From assembly GCA_000091165.1 (NCBI GenBank), contig FP565575.1, forward strand, positions 360,001 to 392,000: a stretch of DNA of 32,000 bases, in the 5' to 3' direction. Below the pieces are notes generated by a model. That model was not told the DNA's origin. It worked only from the letters and a program-made list of their open reading frames with translations, and made no database searches. Within the stretch, counting starts at the first letter, position 1. Each line of letters opens with the position of its first letter. Below are positions 8,954-31,684 of this stretch, in pieces. Origin of the DNA: Candidatus Methylomirabilis oxygeniifera. GTDB lineage: Bacteria; Methylomirabilota; Methylomirabilia; Methylomirabilales; Methylomirabilaceae. The translations under genes were made by a program, and so were the position numbers.

Positions 8954-9262
8954 GTGGTATTTGTGAAATCGGAACTTTTGGCAGGTTTGTGGTCAGAAGC
9001 GGTGGCAGGTTTGACCGGAATATGCACCTATGAGGATCAGATGGACCTTGCCGATTTCACCGCCCTCCTCATTGAGAAATGCGCCGTTCGGAATGTCGCG
9101 TTCATGGGTCCGGAGGACTTTTTCCGGGACACCATACTCGTTTCTATCGAGAAGCGTTGGAGTCAGTGGCTTGGCCCGCTTGTGTCGGCGCTTCCTCTTT
9201 TCGAGACCGTCATCAGTGAACTCCGGCCGCAGATCACGGCTTTCATCTCCACTGTGAAGTGA
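8954..9262 (+). CDS. Hypothetical protein (weak call; alternative ATG at 9041)
   Basis: This is the only sizeable ORF in an otherwise non-coding 0.8-kb gap. I recognise no family, and it has a GTG start. Confidence 0.25.
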   Translation: MVFVKSELLAGLWSEAVAGLTGICTYEDQMDLADFTALLIEKCAVRNVAFMGPEDFFRDTILVSIEKRWSQWLGPLVSALPLFETVISELRPQITAFISTVK

Positions 9263-9290
9263 ATAGTGATCTTGTGCTGATTGTAAGCGG

Positions 9291-10235
9291 CTAGGCGGGT
9301 TTGTCGTCCAGACCGCCCATGGCCAATACCGCGAAGGCCTCGGCGAGTCCCGCCGTCACCCGGGTAAACTCCGGATATGCCAGCTTCTCGGGCGTATCTT
9401 TGCGGGTATGGTAATAGGGGTAGCGGTAGAACGCGGTGTCGGTGACCATGATGGCGCGGTAGCCATGCCGCCAAAACGACCAGTGATCGCTCCAGGCGAC
9501 CCCCGGGACAAAACGGGACGTCGCCACGTGTTCGAGCGGAAAGTCGGAAGCATGGCGGAAGGCCTGCACTGCGCGGCGCATCAGGGCGCGGGAGCGGAAG
9601 TCGGAGACGAAGGTGATGAAGTTGCCTTGACGCGGATAGAAGAACTGGAACAGGGGCGGGTAGTGCTGACTGCCGCGTTCGTCCCGGTAATAACCGATGG
9701 TCTCCAGCGAGACCATCGCGCGAATCGCATCGCCGCGCGTCTGCGCCGCTTTGGCGTAGGCTTCGCTCCCGTGCTTGCGCCTGAAGAAGAAGGGCGGCTC
9801 TTCATTGACGAACGCGACGAAACGCACTGTGACCGCCGGGATCAGTTCGGCAAATAGCCGGGACAGCTCGAGCAGGGCGGAGACACCGCTCGCATTGTCA
9901 TTGGCGCCCGGGCTCCCGCGCACCGAGTCGTAGTGGGCGCCGATCAGCAGGATCTTGTGGGGCCGCGCGCTTCCGAGTCGCGTGACCTCCAGGTTGGCCC
10001 ACCGGCCGCCGGATACCTCGTACCAGTGTGGGGTCACCTGATAGCCCTGGCTGCGCCACTCCTCCTGGATGTAGTGTTCGGCGGCGCGCAGCGCCTCAGG
10101 CCGAAAGACGTTGCGCTCACCGATCTCGCCGGCGAGGTGCTCGACGTGAGCCCGCAGGCGTGAGGCTGAGACCTGCTGAGCGATATGTGCGGTCCCTAAG
10201 GCTGGCTTTGATACGTGTGACATGGTATCATCCAT
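9291..10235 (-). CDS. M28-family Zn-dependent peptidase (aminopeptidase-like)
   Basis: LLIGAHYDSVRGSPGANDNASGVSALLELSR plus the downstream FVAFVNEEPPFF... and SDHWSFW motifs are characteristic of M28 metallopeptidases. Confidence 0.8.
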   Translation of the reverse strand: MDDTMSHVSKPALGTAHIAQQVSASRLRAHVEHLAGEIGERNVFRPEALRAAEHYIQEEWRSQGYQVTPHWYEVSGGRWANLEVTRLGSARPHKILLIGAHYDSVRGSPGANDNASGVSALLELSRLFAELIPAVTVRFVAFVNEEPPFFFRRKHGSEAYAKAAQTRGDAIRAMVSLETIGYYRDERGSQHYPPLFQFFYPRQGNFITFVSDFRSRALMRRAVQAFRHASDFPLEHVATSRFVPGVAWSDHWSFWRHGYRAIMVTDTAFYRYPYYHTRKDTPEKLAYPEFTRVTAGLAEAFAVLAMGGLDDKPA

Positions 10236-10365
10236 CGACGTCAGATCGCGCGAGCCTCAATCCTGATCGATATGGGCTTATCGTGACCGTTTTCCACTCC
10301 TCAATTATTGTACACCAGAGAAGATGCTGCTGTGATAGAAAATCATCAACAGGAGGATGGACGAG

Positions 10366-10701
10366 ATGAGACAGATCGTGGCATTGGGTATCGCAATGCT
10401 TCTGATCGGACAGAGTACTCAAAGCTGGGCAGGATCAGAAGCAAGTAGGCAGCACAGCACGCTCAGACAGGTCGGCACCGGGGTCGGCAGTGCCGTGGGG
10501 ACAATCGTGTATTTCCCGTTCAAGGCAACCTTCTGTATTCTAGGCGGGCTGGCCAGCGGCGTGACCCTGATGGTTGCGGGATCCGAGCAGGCCGGAAGGG
10601 TAGCCGATACCGCCTGTCGAGGGACCTGGACGATTACCCCGGCCGTTGTAGCAGGCGAGGAGCCGGTCTACTTTGTGGGCAATCCCTCCGGACGACAGTG
10701 A
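10366..10701 (+). CDS. Small secreted or membrane-associated hypothetical protein
   Basis: Signal-peptide-like N-terminus MRQIVALGIAMLLIGQSTQSWAGSE. AGGAGG lies 10 nt upstream of the ATG at 10366 (the ORF track starts at 10357). A Gly/Ala-rich hydrophobic core follows. Confidence 0.5.
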   Translation: MRQIVALGIAMLLIGQSTQSWAGSEASRQHSTLRQVGTGVGSAVGTIVYFPFKATFCILGGLASGVTLMVAGSEQAGRVADTACRGTWTITPAVVAGEEPVYFVGNPSGRQ

Positions 10702-10730
10702 GGAGATCGCCAACCTCTTGAAGTTCCCCT

Positions 10731-10758
10731 TTGAAAAACGCGGCAAGTATGTTATAGT
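10731..10758 (+). promoter_or_regulatory. Sigma-70-like promoter candidate for the helicase gene (TTGAAA-N16-TATAGT)
   Basis: TTGAAA at 10731-10736, a 16-nt spacer, then TATAGT at 10753-10758. This lies about 200 nt upstream of the ATG at 10957. Confidence 0.35.
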
Positions 10759-10956
10759 GACTCGAAATTGCAGTAGTAAGATCGATCGAGGCCGTGACGC
10801 GGCCCGATCCATTGTCGAGTTGGGACGTTCAATCCCGCACGGTGACTTCTCCGGTGATCCCACCGTTAGCCCCCACTCAATCCGACCGGATAAACAGCAT
10901 GGGCGCATTTTATCCATCACGGAACAGATGCGCCTAACAGCAGCATTAGGAGGATT

Positions 10957-12396
10957 ATGTCGTTTTCGTCATTCAAACTCAACGCGAACCTGTTGAAAGC
11001 CGTCCACAACATGGGGTTTAAGAGCCCGACGCCGATTCAGCGCGTGGCTGTTCCGCCCCTTCTGGAGGGCCGGGACGTTATGGCCAGCGCCGTAACGGGC
11101 AGCGGCAAGACGGCGGCGTTTCTGCTGCCCATCCTCCATTGCCTGATGGAGAAGCCAAGGGGAACAACGAGGGCGCTCGTTCTGGCGCCCACCCGGGAGC
11201 TGGCGGCGCAGATCTCGGATCACCTCCGCGAGCTCGCAGCGCACACTCCCTTGAAGGGCGCCGCGGTCTACGGGGGCGTCTCCATGGGACCTCAGGAACA
11301 GGCGTTTCGCAGAGGCGTTGACGTCCTGATCGCGACCCCCGGTCGACTCCTCGACCATTTCCAGTACCCGTACGCGCGCCTCGCCGGCATTGAGCACCTC
11401 GTGCTCGACGAGGCGGACCGTATGCTCGACATGGGTTTTCTGCCGGATATCCGCCGCATCCTGCAGCACGTTCCCAAGAAGCGGCAGACCCTGCTCTTTT
11501 CGGCGACCTTGCCGGCGCCTATCATGGAACTTGCCCGGGACATGCTCCAGAACCCGGTCTCCCTGAACATCGAGCGCAAGGCCGCGCCGGCGGCGGGGAT
11601 TACTCATGTGGCCTACCCTGTCCCGCATGAGCTGAAGTCCACCCTCTTCCTGGAACTGGTGAAGAATAGCGCGTCCAAGCACGTGCTGGCCTTCACCCGA
11701 ACCAAGCACCGGGCCAACCGGCTCGCCGACTTCCTTGAGAAGCACGGCGTCACTTGCGAACGGATCCACGGTAACCGCAGTCAGGCGCAGCGGACCGAAG
11801 CCCTGGCCAGCTTCAAGAGGGGACGGTGTCGCGTCCTGGTCGCGACCGACATCGCGGCCCGCGGCATTGACGTGGAAGCGTTGGGCCTCGTCGTGAATTT
11901 CGACGTCCCGCAACTCCCCGAGGATTACATCCACCGGGTCGGGCGTACGGGACGGGTAGACGCCACGGGCGATGCCTACACCCTCGTCTCACCGAACGAA
12001 GAGGGCACTCTCCGCGCCATTGAGAGCAACATCGGCACACGCCTGCCGCGCCAGAAGGTTCAGGGGTTCAATTACGCCACGACGCCCACTGAGCGCTTTG
12101 AGGTTCCCCTCGCCGAACGCATTGCCGCCATCCGCACCCGAAAAGCGGAGGAGCGGGTTCGGGCGAAGGCGAATGCTGCGCGCCGCACCGCGCCGGGGAT
12201 GACGGTCGTGTCCGCCGGACACGGGACAGCGGGGCAGAACCCCAGGAGCAATCGCTCAGCCGGCCCAAGTCGCTTGGGCGCAAAGTCGGCTACAGGGAAG
12301 TCCTTCAGCAGACCAGTCAGTGGACGCGCGAACGGGCAGACCGGCTGGCGAAGCAATGGCTCCGCCACAGAGCCACGGAGCGCCCGGAGGGCGTAG
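10957..12396 (+). CDS. rhlE: DEAD-box ATP-dependent RNA helicase (RhlE-like) with a basic C-terminal tail
   Basis: Q-motif region GFKSPTPIQ. Motif I AVTGSGKTAAF. PTRELA. DEAD (VLDEADRMLDMGF). SAT. HRVGRTGR. RBS AGGAGGA lies before the ATG. Confidence 0.93.
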   Translation: MSFSSFKLNANLLKAVHNMGFKSPTPIQRVAVPPLLEGRDVMASAVTGSGKTAAFLLPILHCLMEKPRGTTRALVLAPTRELAAQISDHLRELAAHTPLKGAAVYGGVSMGPQEQAFRRGVDVLIATPGRLLDHFQYPYARLAGIEHLVLDEADRMLDMGFLPDIRRILQHVPKKRQTLLFSATLPAPIMELARDMLQNPVSLNIERKAAPAAGITHVAYPVPHELKSTLFLELVKNSASKHVLAFTRTKHRANRLADFLEKHGVTCERIHGNRSQAQRTEALASFKRGRCRVLVATDIAARGIDVEALGLVVNFDVPQLPEDYIHRVGRTGRVDATGDAYTLVSPNEEGTLRAIESNIGTRLPRQKVQGFNYATTPTERFEVPLAERIAAIRTRKAEERVRAKANAARRTAPGMTVVSAGHGTAGQNPRSNRSAGPSRLGAKSATGKSFSRPVSGRANGQTGWRSNGSATEPRSARRA

Positions 12397-12419
12397 CACA
12401 CATCTCTGCGGGTCAGAAT

Positions 12420-12449
12420 CGGCTTCGTGGTCGCGTGACCACGAAGCCG
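12420..12449 (+). terminator. Strong hairpin downstream of the helicase stop codon (13-bp perfect stem, 4-nt loop)
   Basis: CGGCTTCGTGGTC-gcgt-GACCACGAAGCCG begins 24 nt after the TAG at 12394-12396. No U-tract follows, so intrinsic-terminator function is uncertain. Confidence 0.4.
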
Positions 12450-12596
12450 TACTCCCCTCTCCGGGTCGGACCGCCTGCCTGCCGTACCGGACGCGGCACA
12501 GACCGGCCGTCTCGCTAGGCCGCTTGGCCTTATCTTCTATTTGCCGGTAGTGATCCTGTACCCCCACACCCACCCACCCCGGCTATCTCGGTCGGC

Positions 12597-12673
12597 CCCC
12601 TCCAGATCCCTTTGGGCTCCGGGAAAGCCCAGCCCTTTCGGGTTTCTCGCTTGCGCCCTTGGTGAGCCCGCCG
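12597..12673. repeat. Direct repeat family A, copy 1 (about 75 bp)
   Basis: gatccctttgggctccgggaaagcccagccctttcgggtttctcgcttgcgcccttggtgagccc matches copy 2 at 13994-14070, with only a few mismatches by eye. Confidence 0.85.
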
Positions 12674-12754
12674 TCGCCTTCAGAATCCATTGCGGTGTGG
12701 ACACGTTCCGATTGACCGAAGAGCAACTGCGAGAGGAATCCGGCATTGCCTGAG

Positions 12755-12850
12755 GTCATCTCCAGCACCTCACCTCTGCAATACTTAGCTCAGATCGGTC
12801 TGTTGCACCTTTTGCCGGTCATGGCCGGACGCATCCTGACAGGCGAATAG
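12755..12850 (+). pseudogene. N-terminal fragment of a PIN-like (DUF3368-type) nucleic-acid-binding protein
   Basis: Translates to VISSTSPLQYLAQIGLLHLLPVMAGRILTGE*. This resembles the conserved (D/S)xSPLIxLAKIGxLDLL N-terminus of PIN-like proteins. Only about 30 codons are present and there is no start codon. Confidence 0.4.
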
Positions 12851-12855
12851 ATTGA

Positions 12856-12993
12856 ATGGCACAGAAGCCAGAGCTTGAACTTACCTGGATCGGGAAGGAG
12901 AACCGACTGAAGCTGGGTCTGCGCATCCTGCTGGAGGACCCGGAGAAGTTCCATCACGTCCCGCTCTACATCTCGCCTTCGGTACCCGCATAG
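12856..12993 (+). pseudogene. N-terminal fragment of an N6-adenine DNA methyltransferase (LELTWIGK-type N-terminus)
   Basis: ATG at 12856 gives MAQKPELELTWIGKENRLKLGLRILLEDPEKFHH. This is the stereotyped N-terminus of type III-Mod-like or N4/N6 methylases. It then diverges (VPLYISPSVPA*) into repeat family B. Confidence 0.55.
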
Positions 12994-13020
12994 CTGCCGT
13001 CTTCCACAGAGAGACCCCCT
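12966..13020. repeat. Direct repeat family B, copy 1 (about 40-55 bp)
   Basis: ct.ca.ct.gccttcgg..cc.gcatagctgccgtc is shared with 14759-14815. In both copies the TAG inside the repeat terminates the upstream ORF. Confidence 0.6.
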
Positions 13021-13221: not shown

Positions 13222-13839
13222 ATGACAGCAAAGTCGGTAAAATACGACGCGCGTAAAATTGAATTGCTGATACTCACGATTCGCGGGCAGAAGGTAATTT
13301 TGGACCGCGACTTGGCTGCTCTCTATGGTGTGCCCACCTTTCGATTTAATGAAGCCGTAAAGCGCAATCGCCGGCGCTTTCCCGATGACTTCGCGTTTCA
13401 GCTTACGCGTCAAGAGCTTACAGACTTGATATCGCATATTGCGATATCAAGTTCGGGTCATGGGGGCATTCGTAAACTTCCTTGGGCCTTTACGGAGCAT
13501 GGCGCGGTCATGGCCGCGAACATTCTTCGCAGCGAGCGGGCCATCCAGATGAGTGTCTTCGTTGTACGCGCCTTCGTGAAGATGCGCTCCTTGCTTGCGG
13601 CCCAAAAAGACCTGACTGGAAAGCTCGCGGAATTGGAGAAAACGCTGACTGAACGGGTTGACCTGCACGAACGGGTCATCTCCGACATTATCCAGCAAAT
13701 CATGTCTCTCCTAAGTCCTCCGTCGCTGCCTGAGCCGCCGGAAAAGCGAATTGGCTTTCATGTACGGGAAGGTCTCGCCACCTACAAGCGCCGCCGGAAC
13801 CTTGGCCTGAAGCGAATCGAAGGGAAGGTCAAGCCATGA
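13222..13839 (+). CDS. ORF6N-domain (KilA-N-like) DNA-binding protein
   Basis: IRGQKVILDRDLAALYGVPTFRFNEAVKRNRRRFPDDFAFQLT...GGIRKLPWAFTEHGAVMAANILRSERAIQMSVFVVRAFVKMR matches the ORF6N consensus as I recall it. Confidence 0.8.
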   Translation: MTAKSVKYDARKIELLILTIRGQKVILDRDLAALYGVPTFRFNEAVKRNRRRFPDDFAFQLTRQELTDLISHIAISSSGHGGIRKLPWAFTEHGAVMAANILRSERAIQMSVFVVRAFVKMRSLLAAQKDLTGKLAELEKTLTERVDLHERVISDIIQQIMSLLSPPSLPEPPEKRIGFHVREGLATYKRRRNLGLKRIEGKVKP

Positions 13840-13993: not shown

Positions 13994-14070
13994 TCCCTCC
14001 CGATCCCTTCGGGCTCCGGGAAAACCCCGCCCTTTCGGGTTTCTCGCTTGCGCCCTTGGTGAGCCCTCCG
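13994..14070. repeat. Direct repeat family A, copy 2
   Basis: gatcccttcgggctccgggaaaaccccgccctttcgggtttctcgcttgcgcccttggtgagccc is the partner of 12597-12673. Confidence 0.85.
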
Positions 14071-14184
14071 CCGGGACCAACTCATCGCCGAGATCGAAGG
14101 CAAGCTGCAGCAGCGCGTCTCGCAGAAGATGCTGTGTTCCATCCGGTGGTCGTTGACATGATTCGTAGGCTACGCTTGACAGGC

Positions 14185-14594: not shown

Positions 14595-14786
14595 ATGACA
14601 GATCCGACGATCACCCGCCTTCACTACAAGGCTGACATCAAACTAACCGGATCACTTGAGCCGCCGTTCATCGAGGCCATCCGCGGGGCAGTCCTCAAAC
14701 TGGCAGGCGAGCAGATTTACGGGCACAGAAGCCAAAATTCAAGCTCGCGCTCCCCGTTCTGCACCTTGCCTTCGGCGCCAGCATAG
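14595..14786 (+). CDS. Hypothetical 63-aa ORF, possibly the truncated 5' end of a lost gene
   Basis: The ORF runs into repeat family B copy 2 and ends ...CTLPSAPA*. This parallels the ...YISPSVPA* end of the methyltransferase fragment. Confidence 0.25.
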   Translation: MTDPTITRLHYKADIKLTGSLEPPFIEAIRGAVLKLAGEQIYGHRSQNSSSRSPFCTLPSAPA

Positions 14787-14815
14787 CTGCCGTCCCCCAA
14801 GTTTGGAGAGTTCCC
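14759..14815. repeat. Direct repeat family B, copy 2
   Basis: ctgcaccttgccttcggcgccagcatagctgccgtccccc... is the partner of 12966-13020. Confidence 0.6.
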
Positions 14816-14977
14816 CTTCCTCTGTGGAAAATTATCCACCTTTATTCCAGCCCCTCTTTTGTTATTGAGAGATAGAACTGTTTGGAATATTCTACCCTTG
14901 ATTGAAGGGATCAAGGCGTCGATCGCTTATCGGCTTCGTGTGGCCAGCGGTTCCATGCCGTCGAACCAATCGGGTAA

Positions 14978-15154
14978 AGTCGAAATAAGGAAAGATTGGA
15001 GGACAGGGTTGAGCGTATCCCGTCGGCAAAGGAGGATGATTCCGAAGCCGATGTCTTGGGGCTCGAATACGAAATAGACCGGCGCGTATACCGCCTGTAC
15101 GGCCTGACCAAGGAGAAAACCGCCATTGTTGAGGGTTCACAAAAACGAAGATGA
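14978..15154 (+). pseudogene. C-terminal fragment of a DNA methyltransferase or type IIG R-M protein
   Basis: The frame opens after the TAA at 14975 and has no ATG. It translates to ...KERLEDRVERIPSAKEDDSEADVLGLEYEIDRRVYRLYGLTKEKTAIVEGSQKRR*. The EIDxxVYxLYGLTxEExxIVE tail is characteristic of Eco57I/PglX-type methylase C-termini. Confidence 0.55.
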
Positions 15155-15585
15155 CGTATTTTTCCATATGTCGAGGACCGTTACACGCGTCTGTTAATCA
15201 GTGCTCAACGAGTTTTTGCAGATGCGCGAAGCCTGAACCCCAGGACCAATTCCTCGGACGGCTTACGAATATCGAACACGGCAGCAGCGTTAGTATCCGC
15301 CCGATCGAGCTCACTTAAGAGTCGCTAATAGAAACAGCACACTGATCTCATTTTTCTTAGTGGTGGATATCAGTTGCGAGTTGATCGGACGCGTCAGCTC
15401 AAGCAGGCTTGGTTTGGACCTCTGCCAAGTGTAGAATAAAGGTTGGCCAACGCCCCGTGCATGGCGCCAGCCGAAAATCATAGAATGAGATATACTGTCT
15501 CGCCCGTTAAGCGAGTAAAATGATTGCTTAGTCTTATGGCGCTGCCCGCGATCAACGGGGCGCCATGAAAGGAGGATCTGGCGAA

Positions 15586-16239
15586 ATGGGTGCCTGCAAG
15601 CTTTGTTCTGAACTCGAATCACGCACATCTGCATGGAACCAGCCGCTATTCGAGTCACCGAATTTTGTGGCACTTCCGTCGCTGGGCGCGCTCATTGAGG
15701 GATGGATTCTTCTGGTGCCCAAGCGCCATTTCATCTCATTCGGCGCGGTGCCGGGTTCTATGCTTGCTGAGATGAACGAGTTTAAGGGGTTCCTCTGCTC
15801 GGTGCTGGGTCAGCGTTATGGAACGGCTACTGCGTTTGAACATGGCCCGATCGCGGCAGGTCGAACCGTAGGGTGCGGGGTCGATCATGCACATCTCCAC
15901 CTCGTCCCGCTTCTATTTGATCTCTTGGCTGAAGTATCGCCATTATTGCCAAGCGGTGTCAGGTGGGCGAACGCTGGGATTGAGGAATGCCAGGACGCGT
16001 ACGGTCGAGGGCAAGACTATTTGTATCTTGAGCAACCAATCTGCTCAGGCTGGATCGCCACCCACGACCAATTTGGAAGCCAGCTCTTCCGCCGAGCCAT
16101 AGCGACACGAATTGGTGTGCGAGATCAATACAACTGGCGCGAGTACGAGCAGTTGCCAACCGTGATGGCCACCATGCAGATGGTTCGGGCCTTGGTCTCA
16201 ACCGGAGCCGCTGATGGCCTATCTGGTTCAGCAGCGTAA
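15586..16239 (+). CDS. HIT-superfamily (histidine triad) nucleotide hydrolase/transferase with a C-terminal extension of about 100 aa
   Basis: N-terminal CKLC. ...GWILLVPKRH.... Histidine triad VDHAHLHLVP (codons 15886-15900). AAAGGAGGA RBS lies about 10 nt before the ATG at 15586 (the ORF track starts at 15565). Confidence 0.8.
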   Translation: MGACKLCSELESRTSAWNQPLFESPNFVALPSLGALIEGWILLVPKRHFISFGAVPGSMLAEMNEFKGFLCSVLGQRYGTATAFEHGPIAAGRTVGCGVDHAHLHLVPLLFDLLAEVSPLLPSGVRWANAGIEECQDAYGRGQDYLYLEQPICSGWIATHDQFGSQLFRRAIATRIGVRDQYNWREYEQLPTVMATMQMVRALVSTGAADGLSGSAA

Positions 16240-16806
16240 ATGAATCCGCCCAAAATGGACGACGAGGCTGACGGTCGCGAACGTGGGGAATGGCAGTCCA
16301 AGTATACCGATCCCGTAGCTCGCCGGTGGATTCGGATCGAGTCCGCCTACTTGGCGATCCTCCTTATCATTGCGCCGAGCGCAATGTTGGCATTGTGGCT
16401 GGGATACCCTCAGTATTGGTTGCAGCTATCCGACCAAAAATATCGAACGCTGTTTTTGTGGGGGCTCGCCTGGATAGCTGGGACATTCGGAGGGACGCTT
16501 TTCGACATCAAGTGGCTGTATCGTTCTGTTGCGAGACAGTTCTGGCACATGGATCGTCGCCCGTGGCGATTTTTCACGCCCCATATCTCTGGCGGGCTGG
16601 CTTTTATCGTAATCGCATTAATCTCCTCCGGTCTAGTGCAAGTATTTGACCGCCACGCCATCGAGTCTCCGTCGCTCGTACTCGGTGTAGCGTTTCTTGC
16701 CGGGTATTTTGCCGATAGTACGCTTGCAAAGCTTGCGGAAATTGCCCATACGCTTTTTGGCCAGTCTACTGGAAAGAAAGACATATCCGAGAAGAAAGAC
16801 GCATAG
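16240..16806 (+). CDS. Four-TM membrane protein of unknown family
   Basis: The ATG directly abuts the upstream TAA (gcgTAAATGaat). Hydrophobic helices are IESAYLAILLIIAPSAMLALWLGY, TLFLWGLAWIAGTFGGTLF, ISGGLAFIVIALISSGLV and LVLGVAFLAGYFADSTLA. The N- and C-termini are charged. Confidence 0.7.
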   Translation: MNPPKMDDEADGRERGEWQSKYTDPVARRWIRIESAYLAILLIIAPSAMLALWLGYPQYWLQLSDQKYRTLFLWGLAWIAGTFGGTLFDIKWLYRSVARQFWHMDRRPWRFFTPHISGGLAFIVIALISSGLVQVFDRHAIESPSLVLGVAFLAGYFADSTLAKLAEIAHTLFGQSTGKKDISEKKDA

Positions 16807-16820
16807 CCAGGCGTACCCAA

Positions 16821-17651
16821 ATGAGAGATGCCTCTCCTTTGCGATATCCGGGTGGAAAATGGCGGATCGCGCCGTTCTTCGAGCGAGTCCTTCTGCTCAA
16901 CCGATTGGCTGGTAGCGATTATTTTGAGCCGTATGCGGGCGGTGCGAGCCTCGCATTGAGCCTTCTGCTCGCGAATCGTGTTACCGAGATCTACCTCAAT
17001 GACTTAGATCCTGCTGTCCATGCGTTTTGGTATGTCGTTCTCATGCGAAATAAGGATTTGAGGGAGCTTATCGAGTCGACCGCGGTCACGCCTGAAGAGT
17101 GGATTCGCCAAAAGGAAATCTACAAGAAAGGCCGTTCGGCCGGCATGCTGGCTTTCGGATTCGCAACTTTTTTCCTAAATCGCACAAATCATTCCGGTAT
17201 TATGAACGGAGGGATGATAGGCGGAAAGGCGCAGGAAGGAACATGGAAGTTGGATGCCCGTTTCAACAAGCCGGAATTGCTGAGACGGATTAAACGGATT
17301 GGTTCATATAAGAAGCGTGTCCACCTGTCGCAACTCGATGCTATCGACTTTCTGAACCATACCAAGCCATCGCGAGATAGCCTCGTCTACTTAGACCCGC
17401 CGTATTACAACGCAGGGGCAAAATTATATCTCAATGCGTATGGCCCGGGTGATCATGCGGCTGTACGTAACGCGGTGAGACAACTGGATGCCCCATGGAT
17501 CATTTCCTACGACGATGTTCCTGAAATTAGAACACTGTACAGGCCAGTGCGGTCGCGACGCTTAAGGCTCCTACACACGGCTCGATCTTTGAGGCTCGGT
17601 AGAGAAGTTCTATTTTTCTCATCCCGGTTAAGAATTCCGGTCTACCGTTGA
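16821..17651 (+). CDS. Dam-family (D12 class) N6-adenine DNA methyltransferase
   Basis: YPGGKWRIAPFF. SAM-binding FEPYAGGASLA. YLNDLDPAVHAFW. FFLNRTNHSG. Catalytic DPPY (17394-17405). C-terminal SYDDVPEIRTLY. Confidence 0.88.
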   Translation: MRDASPLRYPGGKWRIAPFFERVLLLNRLAGSDYFEPYAGGASLALSLLLANRVTEIYLNDLDPAVHAFWYVVLMRNKDLRELIESTAVTPEEWIRQKEIYKKGRSAGMLAFGFATFFLNRTNHSGIMNGGMIGGKAQEGTWKLDARFNKPELLRRIKRIGSYKKRVHLSQLDAIDFLNHTKPSRDSLVYLDPPYYNAGAKLYLNAYGPGDHAAVRNAVRQLDAPWIISYDDVPEIRTLYRPVRSRRLRLLHTARSLRLGREVLFFSSRLRIPVYR

Positions 17652-17664
17652 GGATCAATAGAGG

Positions 17665-20310
17665 ATGGCCAAACAACGTCAGGGAGCACAAGCGAGCGTA
17701 GGTGCACCCAGGCGTCAACGAACTGCGCATTTCCAATTCCTGCCACGCAGAGATGTGCTTCTCATTGCAGACGCAGGCCCGATGGAAATTCCGGCCGGCC
17801 AAGTTTCTTCCAACCAGGTTGGCCGGAAAGCTCTGGGACTGAGTGTGCTGCCAATTGAATGGACGCCGCCATTCTTCGTAGTTTCGGCCCAATGCTTCAA
17901 CCGGCAGATTCCTCTTGATACAGTGAACGATTGGATCTGGGTTTCTCACGCTCGGCTCGCGTTCATGCTCAGCGCACCTCTCATGATTCGTTCGAGTGGA
18001 ACCACTGAAACAATGCGCGATCGAGGCAGTCTTATCTCCGAATTATGCACATCAAGAGACGTTGCGGCATTAGTTGGGCAGTTGCGAGCGAAGACCCCGG
18101 ATTCATCTCGCGCGCAAGTGCACTGGATTGTTCAGCAGTATGTAAAGCCGCAACGAAAAGGTCACCTATCAAACGAGAGGCACGTCAGTAGGGAGCCGCG
18201 CGACTGGGCTATAGAGTTTGAGCCAACAGACGATTGTCAAGGACATGCTGTTTCCATCGGAATCCGAACGTGGCGAGAGGGGCTGGAGCCTTCGTTGGAT
18301 TTGAGCTGCGCCTCTGAGACCGAGATTACCCTTCGGCTCAGAGAAGTCGCGAAGTGGGCACTCCAGTTTTCGTCGCGGATCCACTTCGAGTGGGTTTGGG
18401 ATGGAAAAAGACTGTGGATTGTCCAAGCCGATGCTGCCGAGCTGGCCCTCGGGATAGACCCAACTGCTGTATTGCCTGCCAAAATCCAAATGGCCCAGAT
18501 TGGGCGGCTGCAAGTGTTTCGTCTTGCGAGTGCCAATGACTACAAGCGTTACGGCAAGCTTCGTAACGGAGCTCTCTACAAGAAATTCGGGTATGGCATG
18601 CCTCCGTTCTTTCTTGCCGATGATCGTTCCGCGATTACCGATCTCCTCTCCGGCAAAATCTCTCCAGAGATAGAGCAGGACCTCAAAGAGCTAACAAAGC
18701 GCCCACTAATAATCCGTACCGATGGCGCGAATATCCCGCAAGAAAAACGCGAGATGTTGCCTCGCAGTGATCCGCTTGCAACATTTGACGAAGCCAAGCA
18801 GTGGGTCTTAAATGACTTTAAAATCGAGATTAACAAACTTGAATTGGTGGACCACGGCCTGTGCCTGGTTGCCCATCATTTCATTCCATCAGTGGCCTCA
18901 GCATGGGCGCGGGCCGAGCCGGGGAAACAAATTGTCCGAATCGAGTCGCTCTGGGGAATCCCCGAAGGGCTGTATTGGTATTCTCACGATACTGTTGAAG
19001 TGGACACGCTGGCGGTGAAGCTCAAGCGTTTGAGAACCTTCACCGGATGTTCTTTTGAAGTGTCAGAGCGCTTACGTTACAAAGGGGCGTTTGTTGCTGC
19101 TGACGAAAAGGGCAAATGGGCACCAGCCTCAGTTCGGCCTCCACACGACTGGCGCCTTAGTATCAAGAAGCAAGAATGGCTGTTTGAAATCGCACATACT
19201 ACCAGGCGCATCGCCGAGGCTGAGAAAGATCCTGTGGCCGTGATGTGGTTCGTGGACAACCACCCTGAGGCCACTCGGCATAGAGTGCTGCCGTGGTATC
19301 ACTGCAAGTCAAAACTGATCGGTATTCCCAGAGCCGCACCTCGTCGAAAGATCACCACCGCGAAGGATTTCTACGTCAAGAACGAAGCCGATTGGCACAG
19401 GTTGCAACAGGAGCTACATTCGGGCGCGCGAATTGAGCGGGTCGTAGTGGAACCAGCCGACGCTGCGCTCATTCGAAATCCGACCTTTGCCAGGGAACTC
19501 GCCCAACTTGCCGCAACGCGCAAGTTCGTCATCGTGTTGTCCGGTGGAATACTCTCGCACGCATATTACATGCTCACCAAGAGTGGTGCCCAGGTCGAGT
19601 GCATCGACTTGTTCGGAGTCGATGAGGATCGTGCCGACTACAACAAGATTGTCCGAGACAAGATTCCAGAAATCATAGCGAAGCGCGGGGAGCGAGCCAA
19701 AATCATTCACCTGCGGGGCGACGCGCTGGTTACGGCGTTAAGGCAGAAGTTAGTAGAGGAAGCATTCGAGGCCGTAGACGCTAGGTCAGGAGACGACTTA
19801 GTCGGAGAGCTTGCCGATGTGAGCGAGGTCATTGATGCCTTGTGCCGTGCCCTGAAAGTTTCCGACCCTCATTTGAAAGCGGTCCAACTGGAGAAGCGCC
19901 AAAAGAGAGGAGGATTCGAAAAAGGGATCATGTTAGAGAGAACGACGACGCCCCACTCAATACAGCAATCTGTTTCGGATCTTCCAGAAGACAGGTTGCA
20001 ATTTGCGTTGGAGACGATTCCACCCCAGGTAATCGAGCATCCGGCTGACATTCCCACGGTGCCATTGTACAGGCGTCCAGATCTGCGTCAAGTTGAACAG
20101 CAAATAGAGAAGTTATTCGCTTTCGCGACTGAAATTAATAAACTTGGAAACCTGCTGAAGGCGACTCTTGATTTCACTCTACCGATCAGTCCGGGAATTG
20201 AACGAGAGTTCACTCTAACAGTCGAATTGCGGCGATCAGGCAGCGCGCTACGGGGAAACATTCGAGTACGCTGTATACCATCCCAGCTCCACATCGATTT
20301 TCCTGATTGA
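17665..20310 (+). CDS. 881-aa multidomain protein: PEP-synthase/PPDK-type ATP-grasp, a second related module, a PEP-utilizer swivel phospho-His-like segment, a MazG/PRA-PH-like NTP pyrophosphohydrolase and an unknown C-terminal domain
   Basis: VGRKALGLSVLPIEWTPPFFVV resembles GGKAxNLxxLxxxGxPVPxGFxI. LMIRSSGTTE resembles AVRSSAxxED. HFEWVWDGKRLWIVQAD resembles DIEWAxxxGxLYILQxRP. IESLWGIPEGL resembles the GLGExxV motif. VIVLSGGILSHAYYMLTKSGAQV (His632, 19558-19560) resembles GGxTSHAAIxARxxGxP. YNKIVRDKIPEII...LVEEAFEAVDA...LVGELADVSEVIDAL...KRQKRGGFEKGIML matches the all-alpha NTP-PPase EExxE/ExxD pattern. Confidence 0.75.
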   Translation: MAKQRQGAQASVGAPRRQRTAHFQFLPRRDVLLIADAGPMEIPAGQVSSNQVGRKALGLSVLPIEWTPPFFVVSAQCFNRQIPLDTVNDWIWVSHARLAFMLSAPLMIRSSGTTETMRDRGSLISELCTSRDVAALVGQLRAKTPDSSRAQVHWIVQQYVKPQRKGHLSNERHVSREPRDWAIEFEPTDDCQGHAVSIGIRTWREGLEPSLDLSCASETEITLRLREVAKWALQFSSRIHFEWVWDGKRLWIVQADAAELALGIDPTAVLPAKIQMAQIGRLQVFRLASANDYKRYGKLRNGALYKKFGYGMPPFFLADDRSAITDLLSGKISPEIEQDLKELTKRPLIIRTDGANIPQEKREMLPRSDPLATFDEAKQWVLNDFKIEINKLELVDHGLCLVAHHFIPSVASAWARAEPGKQIVRIESLWGIPEGLYWYSHDTVEVDTLAVKLKRLRTFTGCSFEVSERLRYKGAFVAADEKGKWAPASVRPPHDWRLSIKKQEWLFEIAHTTRRIAEAEKDPVAVMWFVDNHPEATRHRVLPWYHCKSKLIGIPRAAPRRKITTAKDFYVKNEADWHRLQQELHSGARIERVVVEPADAALIRNPTFARELAQLAATRKFVIVLSGGILSHAYYMLTKSGAQVECIDLFGVDEDRADYNKIVRDKIPEIIAKRGERAKIIHLRGDALVTALRQKLVEEAFEAVDARSGDDLVGELADVSEVIDALCRALKVSDPHLKAVQLEKRQKRGGFEKGIMLERTTTPHSIQQSVSDLPEDRLQFALETIPPQVIEHPADIPTVPLYRRPDLRQVEQQIEKLFAFATEINKLGNLLKATLDFTLPISPGIEREFTLTVELRRSGSALRGNIRVRCIPSQLHIDFPD

Positions 20311-20329
20311 TCAGGTTGAATCACCCGCT

Positions 20330-20506
20330 ATGCCTTCAAACTTCGTGGCCCATGCGGAACTCCAGAGTAAAACCGAGCAGTTCTGCTGCGAGGTACTTGC
20401 ATGGCGGAAGCCGCTCTATACATTGGCCGACAACGCGAACGGCCACCTGTTCAGGATGGGCGCTCAACCGTTACGCCCAGACGATGTGTCTCTGTTGCTC
20501 AGATAA
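20330..20506 (+). CDS. 58-aa hypothetical ORF just downstream of the large gene (below the ORF-track cutoff)
   Basis: ATG at 20330, TAA at 20504-20506. Translates to MPSNFVAHAELQSKTEQFCCEVLAWRKPLYTLADNANGHLFRMGAQPLRPDDVSLLLR. I recognise no family, so it may be a gene remnant. Confidence 0.2.
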   Translation: MPSNFVAHAELQSKTEQFCCEVLAWRKPLYTLADNANGHLFRMGAQPLRPDDVSLLLR

Positions 20507-20579
20507 AATGCACGGGAGTCACCCCTTGGGAGCTTAGGGCGAGGCAGCCGGATGGTATTTGTGATAAGGTACATGCTAT

Positions 20580-21723: not shown

Positions 21724-22056
21724 CTATAGAAATTCGATCTGACCATACATTTCCTCCGCATCCAATACCTGATGGATCAACATCAACCCACGAATGATGT
21801 CTGAGACTGGCGTTTGCTGCGGCGCGTACACGATCCCCCTGTGATCCACGCCCGCAGCATGTAAACGCAGGAAGTCGTCGTCCTGTGTGAAGATCACCCG
21901 ACCTTCGTTCCGGGCTCGTCGTACATGCTCCTCATCAGGAGCGCCAAGCATTCCCGCTTCCAGCACCGTGAGTACGTCCACTCCACGTTGGCGCAGCCCC
22001 CGCACCACAGCCTTTGCAACATGCTCATCGGCGCAGAACCTAATCTTCTGCCTCAT
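21724..22056 (-). CDS. DUF5615-family PIN-like putative toxin
   Basis: IRFCADEHV...VVRGLRQRGVDVLTV...VIFTQDDDF pattern. It overlaps the upstream DUF433 gene by 17 nt, giving a typical DUF433/DUF5615 pair. Confidence 0.7.
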   Translation of the reverse strand: MRQKIRFCADEHVAKAVVRGLRQRGVDVLTVLEAGMLGAPDEEHVRRARNEGRVIFTQDDDFLRLHAAGVDHRGIVYAPQQTPVSDIIRGLMLIHQVLDAEEMYGQIEFL

Positions 22057-22351
22057 GCAGCTTCTGCTTCAGCTTCGAGGGGGCGCTCTCCCTCAGAGCC
22101 TCAATGAATGCCTTGCTCTCTTCAATGTCGTGGTCGATCTCTGATCGATGGTCGTAGTAGTAGGCCAGTGCCGCATAGACATCGGCAAGGGTCAAGTCGT
22201 ACTCAGAAACAATCTCATCAACGCTCTTGCCGATCCGCTCATGCCAAATCACAATGTTTTGTACCGTAATGCGATGCCCTGCAATACGAGGCTTCCCGCC
22301 CGCTATTCCAGGGGTCACCTCGATATGTTGGTCTAGCGTTTTCGTAGCCAT
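22040..22351 (-). CDS. DUF433-domain putative antitoxin
   Basis: IEVTPGIAGGKPRIAGHRITVQNIVIWHERIGKSVDEIVSEYDLTLADVYAALAYY is the canonical DUF433 core. Confidence 0.8.
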   Translation of the reverse strand: MATKTLDQHIEVTPGIAGGKPRIAGHRITVQNIVIWHERIGKSVDEIVSEYDLTLADVYAALAYYYDHRSEIDHDIEESKAFIEALRESAPSKLKQKLHEAED

Positions 22352-22548: not shown

Positions 22549-22624
22549 TGGTGGAGGGTAGGGGATTCGAACCCCTGGCCTCGGCGTTGCGAACGCCGCG
22601 CTCTCCCAACTGAGCTAACCCCCC
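22549..22624 (-). tRNA. tRNA-Ala (anticodon CGC), CCA encoded
   Basis: The reverse complement folds as a cloverleaf: GGGGGGT-TA-GCTC-AGTTGGGA-GAGC-G-CGGCG-TTCGCAA-CGCCG-AGGCC-AGGGG-TTCGAAT-CCCCT-ACCCTCC-A-CCA. It has the G3:U70 alanine identity pair, anticodon loop TTCGCAA and a TPsiC loop GTTCGAATC. Confidence 0.95.
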
Positions 22625-23536: not shown

Positions 23537-24163
23537 TTACCTGGACTGGTGAGCAACGCGCAAGAGATCCTCGGTGGTGTAGATCGACTCCAACTCATAC
23601 CCGTTTTTCAGCAGTTCTTCGCGGCCGCCCTCCTGCCGGTCCACAAGCGCCAGCGCCTTGACGATCTGGAAGCCGGCGTGCAGCGCGCCGTCGATCGCCT
23701 TGAGGGTAGAGGCCCCTGTCGTGACGACATCCTCAATAATCACAACTCTCGCGCCCGGCCGCTCGAATCCCTCCACCCATTTCTGGGTGCCATGTCCTTT
23801 CGGCTCCTTTCGGACGCTGAAGGCTTGGATCGGCGTTCCTTGAAGCGCGCTGTGATAGGCGACGGCGTAGGCGATCGGGTCCGCGCCGAGCGTGAGTCCT
23901 CCGACGGCGGTGATCCGTATGTCATCCTTTTGTTCAGTGGCCTTGATCCGCTCGAAGAAGAGCCGGCCGAGGAGCGGCATCGCCTCCGACATGAACGTTG
24001 TCTGCTTACAGTTGATGTAGTAACGGCTCTTTCGGCCGGAGGCCAGGGTAAAGACCGGCTCGGTGCTGTGCTGGAAGGAGTGCTGAACCAGCAGTCTCAG
24101 GAGCTTGTCCTCGCACGCCTTAAGCGGGGATTGGTCTCTTGGGGTATCCACGGGGGTGAGCAT
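23537..24163 (-). CDS. pyrE: Orotate phosphoribosyltransferase
   Basis: FTLASGRKSRYYINCK... and the PRPP-binding loop VVIIEDVVTTGAST. The start was chosen at ATG 24163 (MLTPV). The longer track ORF begins at a TTG overlapping the msrA stop. Confidence 0.88.
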   Translation of the reverse strand: MLTPVDTPRDQSPLKACEDKLLRLLVQHSFQHSTEPVFTLASGRKSRYYINCKQTTFMSEAMPLLGRLFFERIKATEQKDDIRITAVGGLTLGADPIAYAVAYHSALQGTPIQAFSVRKEPKGHGTQKWVEGFERPGARVVIIEDVVTTGASTLKAIDGALHAGFQIVKALALVDRQEGGREELLKNGYELESIYTTEDLLRVAHQSR

Positions 24164-24216
24164 ACACGAGGACAGGTGGGGTTGTCTAGATCGTACAGCG
24201 AGGCTGAGCCTGCTTT

Positions 24217-24657
24217 TCAAAGGTATTGCTGGTGGTATTCCTCTGCCCGGTAAAAGGTCGAGGCCGCTGTGATCTCGGTCACGATCGGCTGCTGATGCTT
24301 TCCGCTGAGCTCCAGCTTTCGTTTAGACGCGACCGCGGCAGTCTGCTGCTCGGCATCGTGAAAGAAGATCGCCGAGCGGTACTGCGCGCCGCGGTCCGGT
24401 CCCTGACGATTCAGGGTAGTTGGGTCGTGAATCGACCAGAAAAGAGCGAGGAGATCGTCGTAGGTGACCTGCGAAGGGTCGTACTCTACCTCGACAACCT
24501 CCGCATGGCCGGTCGTGCCGGAGCACACGTCCCGGTACGTCGGGTTTTCGAAGGTGCCGCCCATGTATCCGACTGCCGTTGAGACGACACCAGGCACCCG
24601 GCGAAATTCGGCTTCGACACCCCAGAAGCAGCCCGCCCCAAACGTGGCCTTTTTCAT
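24217..24657 (-). CDS. msrA: Peptide-methionine (S)-S-oxide reductase MsrA
   Basis: [18 protein letters not shown] catalytic GCFWG motif. ...[12 protein letters not shown]...YHQQYL. Confidence 0.95.
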
Positions 24658-24670
24658 CGGTTCGCTCTGC

Positions 24671-25486
24671 TTATTGGGTACCCTTCATCCGGTCGGACAA
24701 GAAGATCTTCAAGATGTCGATCGGGAGCGGAAAAACGATGGTGGAGTTTTTCTCTGTGGCGATCTCGGTGAGCGTCTGTAAGTAGCGAAGCTGGATGGTG
24801 ACAGGCTCGGTCGCCATGATCCTGCCCGCCTGCGCCAGCTTTTCGGAGGCGATCAGCTCACCCTCGGCATGGATGATTTTGGCCCGCTTCTCCCGCTCGG
24901 CCTCAGCCTGCTTGGCCATGGCCCGCTGCATCTCGTGCGGGAGGTCCACGAGCTTGATCTCCACGACGGTGACCTTGATCCCCCACGGATCGGTGTGCTG
25001 GTCGATAATCTGTTGAAGCCGTTGGTTGAGCCGCTCTCTCTCGGCAAGCAGTTCGTCCAGCTCCGATTGCCCCAGGACGCTCCTGAGGGTCGTCTGCGCG
25101 ATCTGCGAGGTGGCGAAAAGAAAATTTTCGACCTGGACGATGGCGCGCTGCGGGTCGATCACGCGGAAGTAGATTACGGCGTTCACTTTGACCGACACGT
25201 TGTCCTTGGTAATGACGTCCTGGGAGGGAACGTCCATGGCCACCGTCCGCAGGCTGACCTTCGTCATCCGATCGATCATGGGGATCAGGAGAATCAGTCC
25301 CGGGCCGTTGCCGGTACCGCCCACATTCACGATCGCCTTTGCGAGGCGGCCCAGACGGAAGATCACGGCCCGTTCGTATTCAGGGAGTATGCGGACCGAG
25401 CTGGCAAGGACAAAAAGCGCCAGGATGAGGAGAAAGAGTATCGGGACCAAGCCGAACACAGTTGAGAGAATCTCCAAGGGATTCAT
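24671..25486 (-). CDS. SPFH/band-7 (stomatin-like, slipin) membrane protein
   Basis: N-terminal TM helix followed by [17 protein letters not shown]...[25 protein letters not shown]..., and a coiled-coil [17 protein letters not shown]. It is paired with an NfeD gene. Confidence 0.92.
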
Positions 25487-26157
25487 GTACGCCCTCCCTG
25501 TCGCTGTTGCGTTGATAGTGCATCGGCTTCAACGGCCACCGCCTCGTGATCTTTGCAGACGAATAACATGAGCCCCTTCACCGCGAGGACCCTGACCTGA
25601 TCGCCGAGCTCAGCCCCCTCCTCGCAGTGAGCCGACCAGAGCTCGCCCCCGACCAGGACGCTTCCCTCCGGTGTGAGCGGCGTCCTGACTGTGCCGATCT
25701 GCCCGATGAGGCCCTCTGCGCCGGTGGTGGTCTTTTGGTGCTGAGCTCTGAGAGCCATGGTGACAATGAAACCGAAGAATACCGCCGTTGCCGCGGTGGT
25801 GAACAGGATGGCGCTGAGCGAGATCCGCATGAACGGCTCTGGACTCCTGATCAACATGAAGGAACCGAGGATCATGGCGATAATGCCGCCCACAGTCAGC
25901 ATTCCGTACGAGGTCACTTTCACTTCGGCGATGAAGAGAATAATCGCCAGCAGGATGAGGAGCAGTCCCGCGTAGTTGATAGGCAGAGTCTGGAAGGCGT
26001 AAAAGGCCAGAATCAGGCAGATCCCCCCGAGGACACCGGGTAGGATGGCGCCGGGGGTGGAGAGCTCGAAGTAGAGCCCGGCCAGACCCAGCATGAGCAG
26101 CATGTACGCAATGTTCGGATCAGAGATCACCTTCAGAACCTTATCCCGGAGACTCAT
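25483..26157 (-). CDS. NfeD-family protein, C-terminal part (TM region plus OB-fold NfeD domain)
   Basis: [31 protein letters not shown]..., several TM helices, and a C-terminal [17 protein letters not shown]...[13 protein letters not shown]-fold signature. The ATG overlaps the upstream stop (ATGA). Confidence 0.85.
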
Positions 26158-27646: not shown

Positions 27647-27816
27647 TTGGCCTCCTTAAAGCTGTAAACTCGCTATTTTTTCTACAATAAGTATAATCTC
27701 CGGTAGCCATCCTGGCAAAGCGAATCTCCGGCTGGTCGGAATAAGGATGAATTACTTTGACAAGCAATAGACGAAACGCTAACGTACCGACTTTACGCTA
27801 TCTTCATGAGGCGACT

Positions 27817-28554: not shown

Positions 28555-28707
28555 GCCAGAATAAGCCACTGCGGAAGAGTTTGACACGTTTAAGCATCCT
28601 CCCGTATACTCCTATCTAATCCTGTCGTGGGCTGATGAGGATTGCGTGCCGGCGCTGGGAGCCGGAGCGTAGACATCGTTCCAGCCCGCACCTACAACGC
28701 GAGAGAG

Positions 28708-31668: not shown

Positions 31669-31684
31669 CCGGTTCCAACGGCCG

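Follow-up and report, generated by a model that had tools for sequence, protein, structure and literature searches.

A stretch of 32,000 nucleotides from Candidatus Methylomirabilis oxygeniifera (contig FP565575.1 of assembly GCA_000091165.1, positions 360,001 to 392,000; referred to here as the window and numbered from its first letter) carries a cassette of four genes that are read from the same strand and span positions 15586–20310. In order, these encode a protein of the HIT family, a small transmembrane (TM) protein, a Dam-class DNA methyltransferase (MTase) and an 881-residue enzyme that we call BIG; the HIT, TM and BIG proteins together are referred to as the triad. The arrangement is far beyond what chance would give, because the set recurs in about 70 genomes that are not related to one another. 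The family assignments and genomic contexts described below suggest that the cassette may be an MTase-linked system acting against mobile elements through a nucleotide-handling or phosphotransfer effector, a reading for which, in our judgement, the case is about evenly balanced.

Organisation of the cassette

A first-pass annotation, made from the letters alone, had described the four genes as co-directional and tightly packed, and this was borne out: the intergenic gaps are 0, 14 and 13 nucleotides (Table 1), and at the first junction the stop codon of the HIT gene abuts the start codon of the TM gene (TAAATG, 16237–16242). Translation of the HIT gene probably starts at its second ATG (15586), giving a protein of 217 residues, because the Shine-Dalgarno-like sequence AAAGGAGG lies just upstream (with GGAGG at 15571–15575), because the gene call of an independent assembly also gives 217 residues, and because homologues align from about residue 8 of the 224-residue frame. 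The two -10-like hexamers that had been noticed upstream are present, but no full sigma-70-type -35/-10 site was scored at their position in a consensus scan, and promoter-like sites were not enriched compared to shuffled sequence. The expected motifs were located in the translations, namely HAHLH (HIT residue 108), DPPY (MTase residue 192) and EPYAGGAS (MTase motif I), together with GGILSH632AYY and EEAFE...ELAD in BIG.

Table 1. Positions of the cassette genes, the predicted domains of BIG and other features of the window.
Feature	Position	Strand	Size or residues	Basis or remark
-10-like hexamers, TAGAAT (15481) and TATACT (15491)	15481–15496	+		Exact sequence; possible promoter only
HIT open reading frame	15565–16239	+	224 residues	If translation starts at 15565
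Shine-Dalgarno-like AAAGGAGG	15568–15575	+		Precedes preferred HIT start, ATG 15586
HIT gene, preferred start	15586–16239	+	217 residues
TM protein gene	16240–16806	+	188 residues
Dam-class MTase gene	16821–17651	+	276 residues
BIG gene	17665–20310	+	881 residues
BIG D1, putative PPDK_N-type ATP-grasp	17746–18459	+	28–265	Motifs, fold; placing of the fold on D1 is putative
BIG D2, second, divergent ATP-grasp-like fold	18532–19344	+	290–560	Model of residues 266–881
BIG swivel-type phosphohistidine domain candidate (SGGILSH632AYY)	19357–19629	+	565–655	Motif, position, fold match
BIG MazG-like all-alpha NTP pyrophosphohydrolase domain	19630–19959	+	656–765	tblastn, PRA-PH, motif
BIG C-terminal beta-rich domain	19960–20310	+	766–881	Fastest-evolving part
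PIN_10/DUF5615 and DUF433 toxin-antitoxin pair	21724–22351	-
tRNA-Ala(cgc)	22549–22624	-

The encoded proteins

The MTase is a Dam-class (D12) N6-adenine DNA methyltransferase (Pfam PF02086, E 3e-14; TIGR00571 below its cut-off) in which motif I, EPYAGGAS, and motif IV, DPPY, are both intact. Among the PADLOC models it matched PD-Lambda-5_B (PDLC04018; E 8.4e-107, residues 3–273 aligned to positions 4–276 of the 291-position profile) and MTase_II (PDLC03358; E 8e-94), and by these profile matches it belongs to the PD-Lambda-5_B or type II MTase subfamily.

The HIT protein matched Pfam HIT with 21.7 bits against a cut-off of 21.5, as did 26 of 35 members of its family, and a family profile found bacterial Hint-like structures in the PDB (E about 3e-6) over residues 1–115 only. 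This region is a HIT domain of the Hint branch; it has a CxxC near its N-terminus, and its HxHxH triad, in the motif DHAHLHLVP, is intact; residues C4, C7, H101, H103 and H105 (217-residue numbering) are invariant in the family, and the C-terminal part of about 100 residues is family-specific. Among the database names is 'Ap4A HIT hydrolase'. No PADLOC model (PADLOC-DB 2.0.0) was matched. The nearest precedent for such a protein in defence is ThsC, a HIT-domain accessory gene in some Thoeris systems that has been proposed to act on nucleotides (PADLOC 2021, PMC8565338). The likeness would lie in the presence of a HIT-family nucleotide hydrolase or transferase within a defence operon; the window protein differs in its CxxC N-terminus, its family-specific C-terminal half and its lack of a PADLOC match, and the cassette has none of the TIR or SIR2 partners of Thoeris.

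Hydropathy analysis of the TM protein gave four hydrophobic segments, and conservation within its family picked out an invariant basic loop (K..Y..VAR..WH.DRR.WR). The family comprises proteins of 125–253 residues, mostly unnamed, with neither a Pfam domain nor an evident fusion. Searches of Pfam, PADLOC and the PDB gave no match and NCBIfam none above cut-off, and profile searches found no relatives outside the family itself.

The largest protein, BIG, is annotated in databases only as 'NTP pyrophosphohydrolase' or 'house-cleaning NTP pyrophosphatase' (NTP, nucleoside triphosphate). A word-indexed search found more than 541 full-length relatives, and an exhaustive search (E<=1e-30) gave 680 clusters at 50% identity. 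Neither the whole protein nor any of five excised segments gave a significant match in Pfam, NCBIfam or PADLOC; as for the TM protein, no Pfam family exists for the bulk of it, and the only match of the family profile to PDB sequences was a spurious one to ribosomal eS7. AlphaFold models were obtained for full-length BIG (pLDDT 72.7) and for residues 266–881 (pLDDT 70.8), and with both models the best solved match in Foldseek was rifampin phosphotransferase (RPH; 5hv1, 5hv2, 5hv3 and 5hv6, E 2e-6 to 1e-8), followed by many ATP-grasp enzymes.

The N-terminal domain of BIG (D1) bears the PPDK_N hallmarks GxK, VRSS..E and FEW...Q, and a comparison of 68 homologues showed at least 97% conservation of its catalytic-looking residues K55, R109-S110, E115, Q157, E242-W243 and Q254. 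The Pfam PPDK_N model matched 4 of 32 family members weakly, and hhalign against a Pfam-validated PPDK_N protein gave a weak alignment (E 0.024) over the equivalent motifs. Residues of about 290–560 (D2) form an ATP-grasp-like fold as well, since many ATP-grasp ligases and, over 294 columns, the ATP-binding domain of RPH (5hv6_A, E 5e-6) are still matched by the model without D1. In D2 the acidic residue of the 'EW' motif is missing (MW527-528), and this domain is the candidate substrate-binding module. Alignment of D1 with D2 by hhalign (E 0.01) is no more than suggestive of an internal duplication.

The candidate swivel domain contains G627, S631 and H632, each at least 97% conserved in the same homologues, and its modelled secondary structure is strand-GGxxSH-helix-strand. 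It follows the ATP-grasp module or modules, as the His domain does in RPH, with Foldseek aligning 586 columns of BIG to RPH 5hv2 (E 1e-8). No match to Pfam PEP-utilizers or to a PDB profile was obtained for this segment, and hhalign to the Pfam-validated PPDK_N protein was again weak. With RPH, PEP synthase, PPDK and glucan-water dikinase, BIG appears to share the fold and the PPDK_N-type ATP-binding Lys and Mg-binding Glu/Gln residues; its GGxxSH motif, which has an invariant His and lies downstream of an ATP-grasp, may correspond to the swivel motif of RPH, PEP synthase and PPDK. It differs from these last three in lacking the family-specific acceptor domain (rifampin-binding or PEP/pyruvate TIM-barrel), in carrying a second, divergent ATP-grasp-like fold after the first and MazG-like and variable beta domains after the His motif, and in giving no significant sequence-profile match to the class.

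In the MazG-like domain the metal-binding residues E698-E699-x-x-E702 and E715-x-x-D718 are at least 97% conserved. By tblastn the domain is 42–47% identical, over about 100 residues, to stand-alone genes for 'NTP pyrophosphohydrolases' of that length (E 1e-8 to 1e-11), in which EExxE...ExxD is likewise found; BIG differs from these enzymes in that the domain is fused to a dikinase-like machine and encoded together with HIT and TM partners. Pfam PRA-PH was matched in 14 of 32 family members, the Caulobacter homologue reaching 21.6 bits against a cut-off of 21.3, whereas the window protein itself fell below that cut-off, and a sub-alignment of the His and MazG-like regions found MazG/PRA-PH entries in the PDB at sub-threshold level only. 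In one subfamily of BIG (P0144 and P0147, about 950–1024 residues) an insertion of about 100–150 residues lies inside the MazG-like domain; at the one such locus examined (P0144, L085:4317–8722), HIT- and TM-sized genes precede the large protein. The genome of the window also encodes a canonical housekeeping MazG with tandem domains and 266 residues (PF03819 twice; window about 26846–27646, minus strand; L001:14276–15076), about 6.5 kb downstream, so the MazG-like domain of BIG is not the only MazG of the cell.

The C-terminal domain had a median identity of 17% among the 68 homologues, compared to 34–47% for the four catalytic domains, and distant full-length homologues cease to align near residue 766. 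Both AlphaFold models show it as a low-confidence beta-sheet, and no family in Pfam, NCBIfam or PADLOC was matched; it is a candidate sensor or specificity module. Purifying selection is evident at three centres of BIG, namely K55, R109, E242 and Q254; H632; and E698, E699, E702, E715 and D718. The protein analysis left the enzyme identities in the first-pass annotation standing: a HIT enzyme with all three triad histidines, a four-TM protein, a Dam-class MTase, and an 881-residue protein with an RPH-like ATP-grasp, His632 and a MazG metal-binding motif.

Conservation and genomic setting

BIG was found in 96 genomes among the 185,579 species representatives of GTDB, which is a lower bound, and these genomes fall into more than 10 phyla, including Nitrospirota, Acidobacteriota, Pseudomonadota, Bacillota, Bacteroidota, Campylobacterota, Verrucomicrobiota, Patescibacteria and Omnitrophota. 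From the 96 genomes 80 loci were kept; the order of the triad was scored in the 68 that had enough upstream DNA, and the MTase in 78. A HIT homologue lay upstream of BIG in 66 of the 68 loci and a TM homologue in 67. Of the two loci that lack the HIT homologue, one (L077) has HIT joined to an additional PPDK_N protein and the other (L080) is degraded. The loci share no further conserved gene beyond the four. A lack of conserved co-occurrence of the four families had been named beforehand as one of the outcomes that would refute the proposal; the families were decisively found together across the phyla, and reverse searches that started from TM and HIT homologues retrieved the same set of genes. 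The cassette occurs in culturable strains of Pseudomonas, Pectobacterium, Paraburkholderia and Luteimonas; complete genomes of E. coli gave no match to it at the DNA level.

Of the 78 loci, 68 encode a Dam-class (D12) MTase, and three layouts occur. The gene separates TM from BIG in 21 loci, which is the layout of the window, precedes HIT in 26 and follows BIG in 20, in 15 of these on the opposite strand. Divergence of the MTase tracks that of BIG (Spearman rho 0.89). The loci without a Dam-class MTase are mostly short contigs or partial matches to BIG, and three are informative. In one (L018), the gene immediately before HIT encodes a β-class N6_N4 MTase. In another, from a metagenome-assembled genome of a Desulfovibrio sp., a 763-residue protein with a Pfam-significant PPDK_N domain and a C-terminal HIT domain (L077:4891–7182) replaces the stand-alone HIT gene, and the locus adjoins Type I restriction-modification (R-M) genes (HsdR, HsdS) and a DUF6602 gene. 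The third (L006) is considered below. On a Caulobacter plasmid, a divergent cassette is paired with a 618-residue class I S-adenosylmethionine MTase. The three layouts, the co-divergence with BIG and the replacement by unrelated MTases suggest that the MTase behaves as an R-M partner. In an Agathobaculum sp. a single open reading frame of 510 residues (L063:3375–4907) comprises the MTase (1–279) and HIT (298–505) and is followed by the TM and 881-residue homologues; this fusion connects the MTase with the effector module, and the PPDK_N-HIT protein of the Desulfovibrio sp. connects HIT with an ATP-grasp enzyme.

By putting HIT beside a DNA-modifying enzyme, the MTase-HIT fusion also speaks for DNA hypermodification, in which the four proteins would jointly install a complex modification of adenine (or of another base or the backbone); the MTase-like enzyme and the dikinase and HIT proteins might, for example, add a phosphorylated or nucleotidylated group, methylation being one step only. 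A set of phosphotransfer and nucleotide-handling enzymes that includes no nuclease, and the tight co-divergence of MTase and BIG, point in the same direction. Nevertheless, we consider this explanation improbable, since the fluid position of the MTase gene and its unrelated substitutes are better fitted by a generic methyl mark, the MTase is an ordinary full-length member of the type II/PD-λ-5_B group with canonical motifs, and the triad can occur with no MTase nearby.

The subfamily of the MTase is shared with PD-λ-5, a two-gene 'ParB/HEPN, methyltransferase' system, described as a compacted RM+Abi, whose cloning needed an mrr-deleted host (Vassallo et al. 2022, PMC9519451). The two would also have in common the pairing of a methylase with a non-classical effector, and they can be physically adjacent: three proteins encoded next to the cassette in other genomes matched PD-Lambda-5_A (E down to 4e-166), and a hidden Markov model (HMM) built from these homologues gave seven loci in which PD-λ-5_A adjoins the MTase and triad, in varied arrangements. 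Such adjacency, taken with the match of the MTase to PD-Lambda-5_B (E 8e-107), is what could be said for regarding the cassette simply as PD-λ-5, possibly with accessory genes. We find that reading hardly credible. PD-λ-5 is defined by its two genes; in the window the ParB/HEPN partner is absent and three unrelated proteins are found instead, none of which matched any of the 25 PD-Lambda-5_A models (E<=1). The six frames of the window contained no PD-λ-5_A-like segment in a search with the homologue-built HMM (E<=10), and about 90% of the cassette loci have no PD-λ-5_A. The identification of the cassette as PD-λ-5 was accordingly rejected, because PD-λ-5_A is missing from every frame of the window and no protein of the triad resembles it. 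These results suggest that the methylase 'hub' of PD-λ-5 is shared and that the triad serves it as an alternative effector module or as an additional one, and the recurrent pairing with a PD-λ-5 MTase and the whole PD-λ-5 pair in seven loci suggest, more generally, that MTases are hubs into which alternative effector modules can be plugged. In Pectobacterium odoriferum (L091:5935–12869) a 563-residue AAA_15/AAA_21 ATPase lies between a Dam-class MTase and a triad with an 860-residue BIG; it may be another effector that uses the same MTase.

As in type II R-M systems, an MTase with intact catalytic motifs is tightly linked in the cassette to a putative effector set. Further features in common with R-M, and with BREX and DISARM as methylation-based systems that have no classical restriction endonuclease, are an MTase that varies in orientation and can be swapped, low G+C, association with integrases and a patchy distribution. 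BREX/Pgl carries phosphate-chemistry enzymes in place of an evident nuclease, a feature it would share with the cassette. Unlike BREX, Pgl and DISARM, the cassette has no homologue of PglZ, BrxC/L or DrmA-E (PADLOC), and its effector families are unreported in those systems. No signature of BREX, DISARM, Dnd-Ssp, Dpd, CBASS, Thoeris or Pycsar in PADLOC-DB 2.0.0 was matched by HIT, TM or BIG, and the MTase matched MTase models only. The first-pass annotation had placed the whole cassette outside the named systems, and this held for the three triad proteins but has to be qualified for the MTase, which is a PD-Lambda-5_B protein and has the PD-λ-5 pair for a neighbour in the seven loci mentioned above. 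Full-text searches of the literature covered here, including the papers on PD-λ-5, DefensePredictor, PADLOC (2021) and BREX-related systems (2026), found no published description of the HIT/TM/BIG/MTase combination.

The composition of the cassette supported the earlier impression of foreign DNA. Its G+C content is 0.532, compared to 0.623 for window positions 1–12400 and 0.606 for positions 23600–32000, and the low stretch exceeds the cassette, extending over about 12.4–23 kb of the window; two single-line counts made by hand, 29/60 at 18541–18600 and 41/60 at 2401–2460, were exact. Across genomes the G+C of the cassette was below that of its flanks in 58 of 59 loci, with a mean difference of -7.9 points (Wilcoxon p 3e-11). 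Integrases, transposases and resolvases occur among the neighbours, as do a NotI restriction enzyme and many housekeeping genes. An integrase-bounded Pseudomonas island (L089/L090, encoding a HIT protein named for Pseudomonas chengduensis) has the order integrase, MTase, HIT, TM, BIG and HNH, followed by Type I R-M. We take the cassette to be horizontally mobile, and see roughly as much reason to accept as to doubt that it is an R-M-like immunity (conflict) unit, its function being predicted from these associations.

The housekeeping neighbours also allow the cassette to be viewed as serving the nucleotide pool beside a methylase, with the MazG-like, HIT and dikinase activities sanitising or recycling methylated or non-canonical nucleotides and with no role in conflict. 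The database names 'house-cleaning NTP pyrophosphatase' and 'Ap4A HIT hydrolase' would fit, as would the triad on one metagenomic contig (L086, below) that sits amid core genes. We regard such a housekeeping role as very improbable, and a supply of substrates such as N6-methyl-dATP or N6-methyl-AMP from DNA turnover as a very improbable basis for it. The cassette is rare and patchy (at least 96 of the 185,579 species representatives), its composition sets it apart as foreign in 58 of 59 genomes, and it is associated with integrases, Type I R-M and PD-λ-5_A; moreover, the genome already encodes a canonical MazG, and the dedicated membrane protein and the hypervariable C-terminal domain of BIG would be left unexplained.

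Several observations count against a defence role. The assignments of D1 and of the swivel His in BIG rest on motifs and on models of medium confidence (pLDDT about 71–73), without significant profile support. No nuclease family was detected in HIT, TM or BIG by searches of Pfam, NCBIfam, PADLOC and the PDB, or by Foldseek on BIG, and no helicase or recognised DNA-binding domain was found in these three proteins with Pfam, NCBIfam and PADLOC, just as the initial reading of the sequence had reported no restriction nuclease or helicase; a nuclease fold could still be hidden in the variable C-terminal domain of BIG. The phage collection and viral contigs contained no match to the cassette, and in the plasmid collection no full-length copy aligned, the divergent cassette of the Caulobacter plasmid being the one example. 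Many of the neighbours are ordinary housekeeping genes, and the cassette often forms a solitary islet and not part of a classic defence island. In addition, at one locus (L006) the MTase next to an intact triad is truncated, and on a 486-kb JGI metagenome contig reached through the reverse searches (L086:6365–10084) HIT, TM and an 818-residue homologue of BIG lie amid QueF, MFS and gyrA, with no MTase within 7 kb. Unless a distant MTase provides cover, these two loci argue against an obligate toxin/antidote relation.

The same two loci bear on the idea of a selfish addiction module, in which the triad would be toxic unless the DNA were methylated and would act by post-segregational killing, any protection against phage being incidental or absent. 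The synteny, mobility and low-G+C signature of the cassette resemble those of R-M systems in this respect also, and toxin-antitoxin genes are its neighbours in the window. Addiction as such appears to us distinctly improbable: the triad is kept with no intact adjacent MTase in both L086 and L006, three enzyme centres are under strong purifying selection, and the rapid evolution of the C-terminal domain is suggestive of an arms race against a target that varies. Addiction would in any case be compatible with defence, as classical R-M systems do both.

A possible mechanism and minor features of the window

Returning to the reading of the cassette as an MTase-linked defence system, its MTase would, judging from the family to which it belongs, methylate adenines in a short motif of host DNA and so provide a self-mark or antidote. 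The strict synteny, the abutment of start and stop codons and the co-divergence suggest that HIT, the four-TM protein and BIG form a membrane-associated effector module. It is possible, if rather doubtful, that the effector is a swivelling-phosphohistidine 'dikinase' and not a nuclease, in which case BIG would phosphorylate a nucleotide or the unmethylated invading DNA, as glucan-water dikinase does a polymer, with assistance from the MazG-like domain, HIT and the membrane partner. A specific reaction scheme can be outlined, which we think unlikely to be correct. BIG may act in the manner of RPH, PEP synthase or glucan-water dikinase, with D1 splitting ATP and placing a phosphoryl group on His632; the swivelling domain would then carry the phosphoryl to an acceptor, most likely a nucleotide, at D2 and/or the MazG-like domain. 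Speculatively, NTP pyrophosphohydrolysis by the MazG-like domain and hydrolysis of nucleotide phosphoramidates or dinucleotides by HIT might alter or drain the nucleotide supply, or mark nucleic acid, leaving invading unmethylated DNA unable to replicate. The trigger might be unmethylated DNA, perceived via the MTase, or else some phage factor to which the rapidly evolving C-terminal domain of BIG responds, and the TM protein might serve either as a membrane anchor for the complex or as an abortive-infection pore.

Methylation-based self/non-self systems are already known; what is undescribed here is the effector module. If the cassette is a defence system, the combination of a dikinase/MazG enzyme, a HIT hydrolase and a small membrane protein would be an effector class without precedent among the described methylation-based systems, and would raise the tractable question of how a DNA methyl mark can be enforced without a nuclease. 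The phosphotransfer chemistry, if confirmed, could be categorically new; BIG would be the first enzyme of the PEPS/PPDK/RPH class in prokaryotic immunity, and would represent a new biochemical way of reading or enforcing a DNA methylation mark. The BIG family is in addition a large one (680 clusters) that is filed under a misleading 'NTP pyrophosphohydrolase' label.

Elsewhere in the window, the region to the left of the low-G+C island carries housekeeping-type genes (KdpD/E, a hybrid histidine kinase, an M28 peptidase and a DEAD-box helicase), and the island itself comprises an ORF6N gene, a helix-turn-helix (HTH) gene, the cassette, YdjM, YCII and the PIN_10/DUF5615-DUF433 toxin-antitoxin pair, beyond which lie the tRNA-Ala and a TraT-like gene (about 22.5–23.6 kb). 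Of the flanks as first described, the toxin-antitoxin genes and the tRNA were confirmed, while the 'methyltransferase fragments' found no support from any tool. A 52-residue open reading frame at 14996–15154 (plus strand) ends in EYEIDRRVYRLYGLTKEKTAIVEG, a tail that may resemble the C-terminus of a type IIG or PglX-like DNA methyltransferase; it gave no Pfam match and no tblastn match in the plasmid collection. The flanking ORF6N, HTH, YdjM, YCII, PIN and DUF433 genes were not co-conserved with the cassette in other loci, and a search for an att-like repeat of the tRNA-Ala that would mark an island boundary gave no such repeat, only short internal ones.

An ORF6N-domain gene (L088:13003–13347) was also seen near the cassette on an unrelated metagenomic contig, with 66% identity over 53 residues to that of the window, which may reflect coincidence or a common mobile context. 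A second dip in G+C (to about 0.52) at window positions 8000–9500 takes in the 5' portion of the gene for the hybrid histidine kinase (5679–8507, minus strand) together with the intergenic stretch ahead of the M28 peptidase gene. The ORF6N gene of the window (13222–13839) is bracketed by a 79-nucleotide direct repeat (12598–12676 and 13995–14073, 92% identity), and patchy repeats of 75–82% identity surround it (12237–13006 against 14687–15262); these repeats may have been left by the insertion of a small element or by recombination inside the island.

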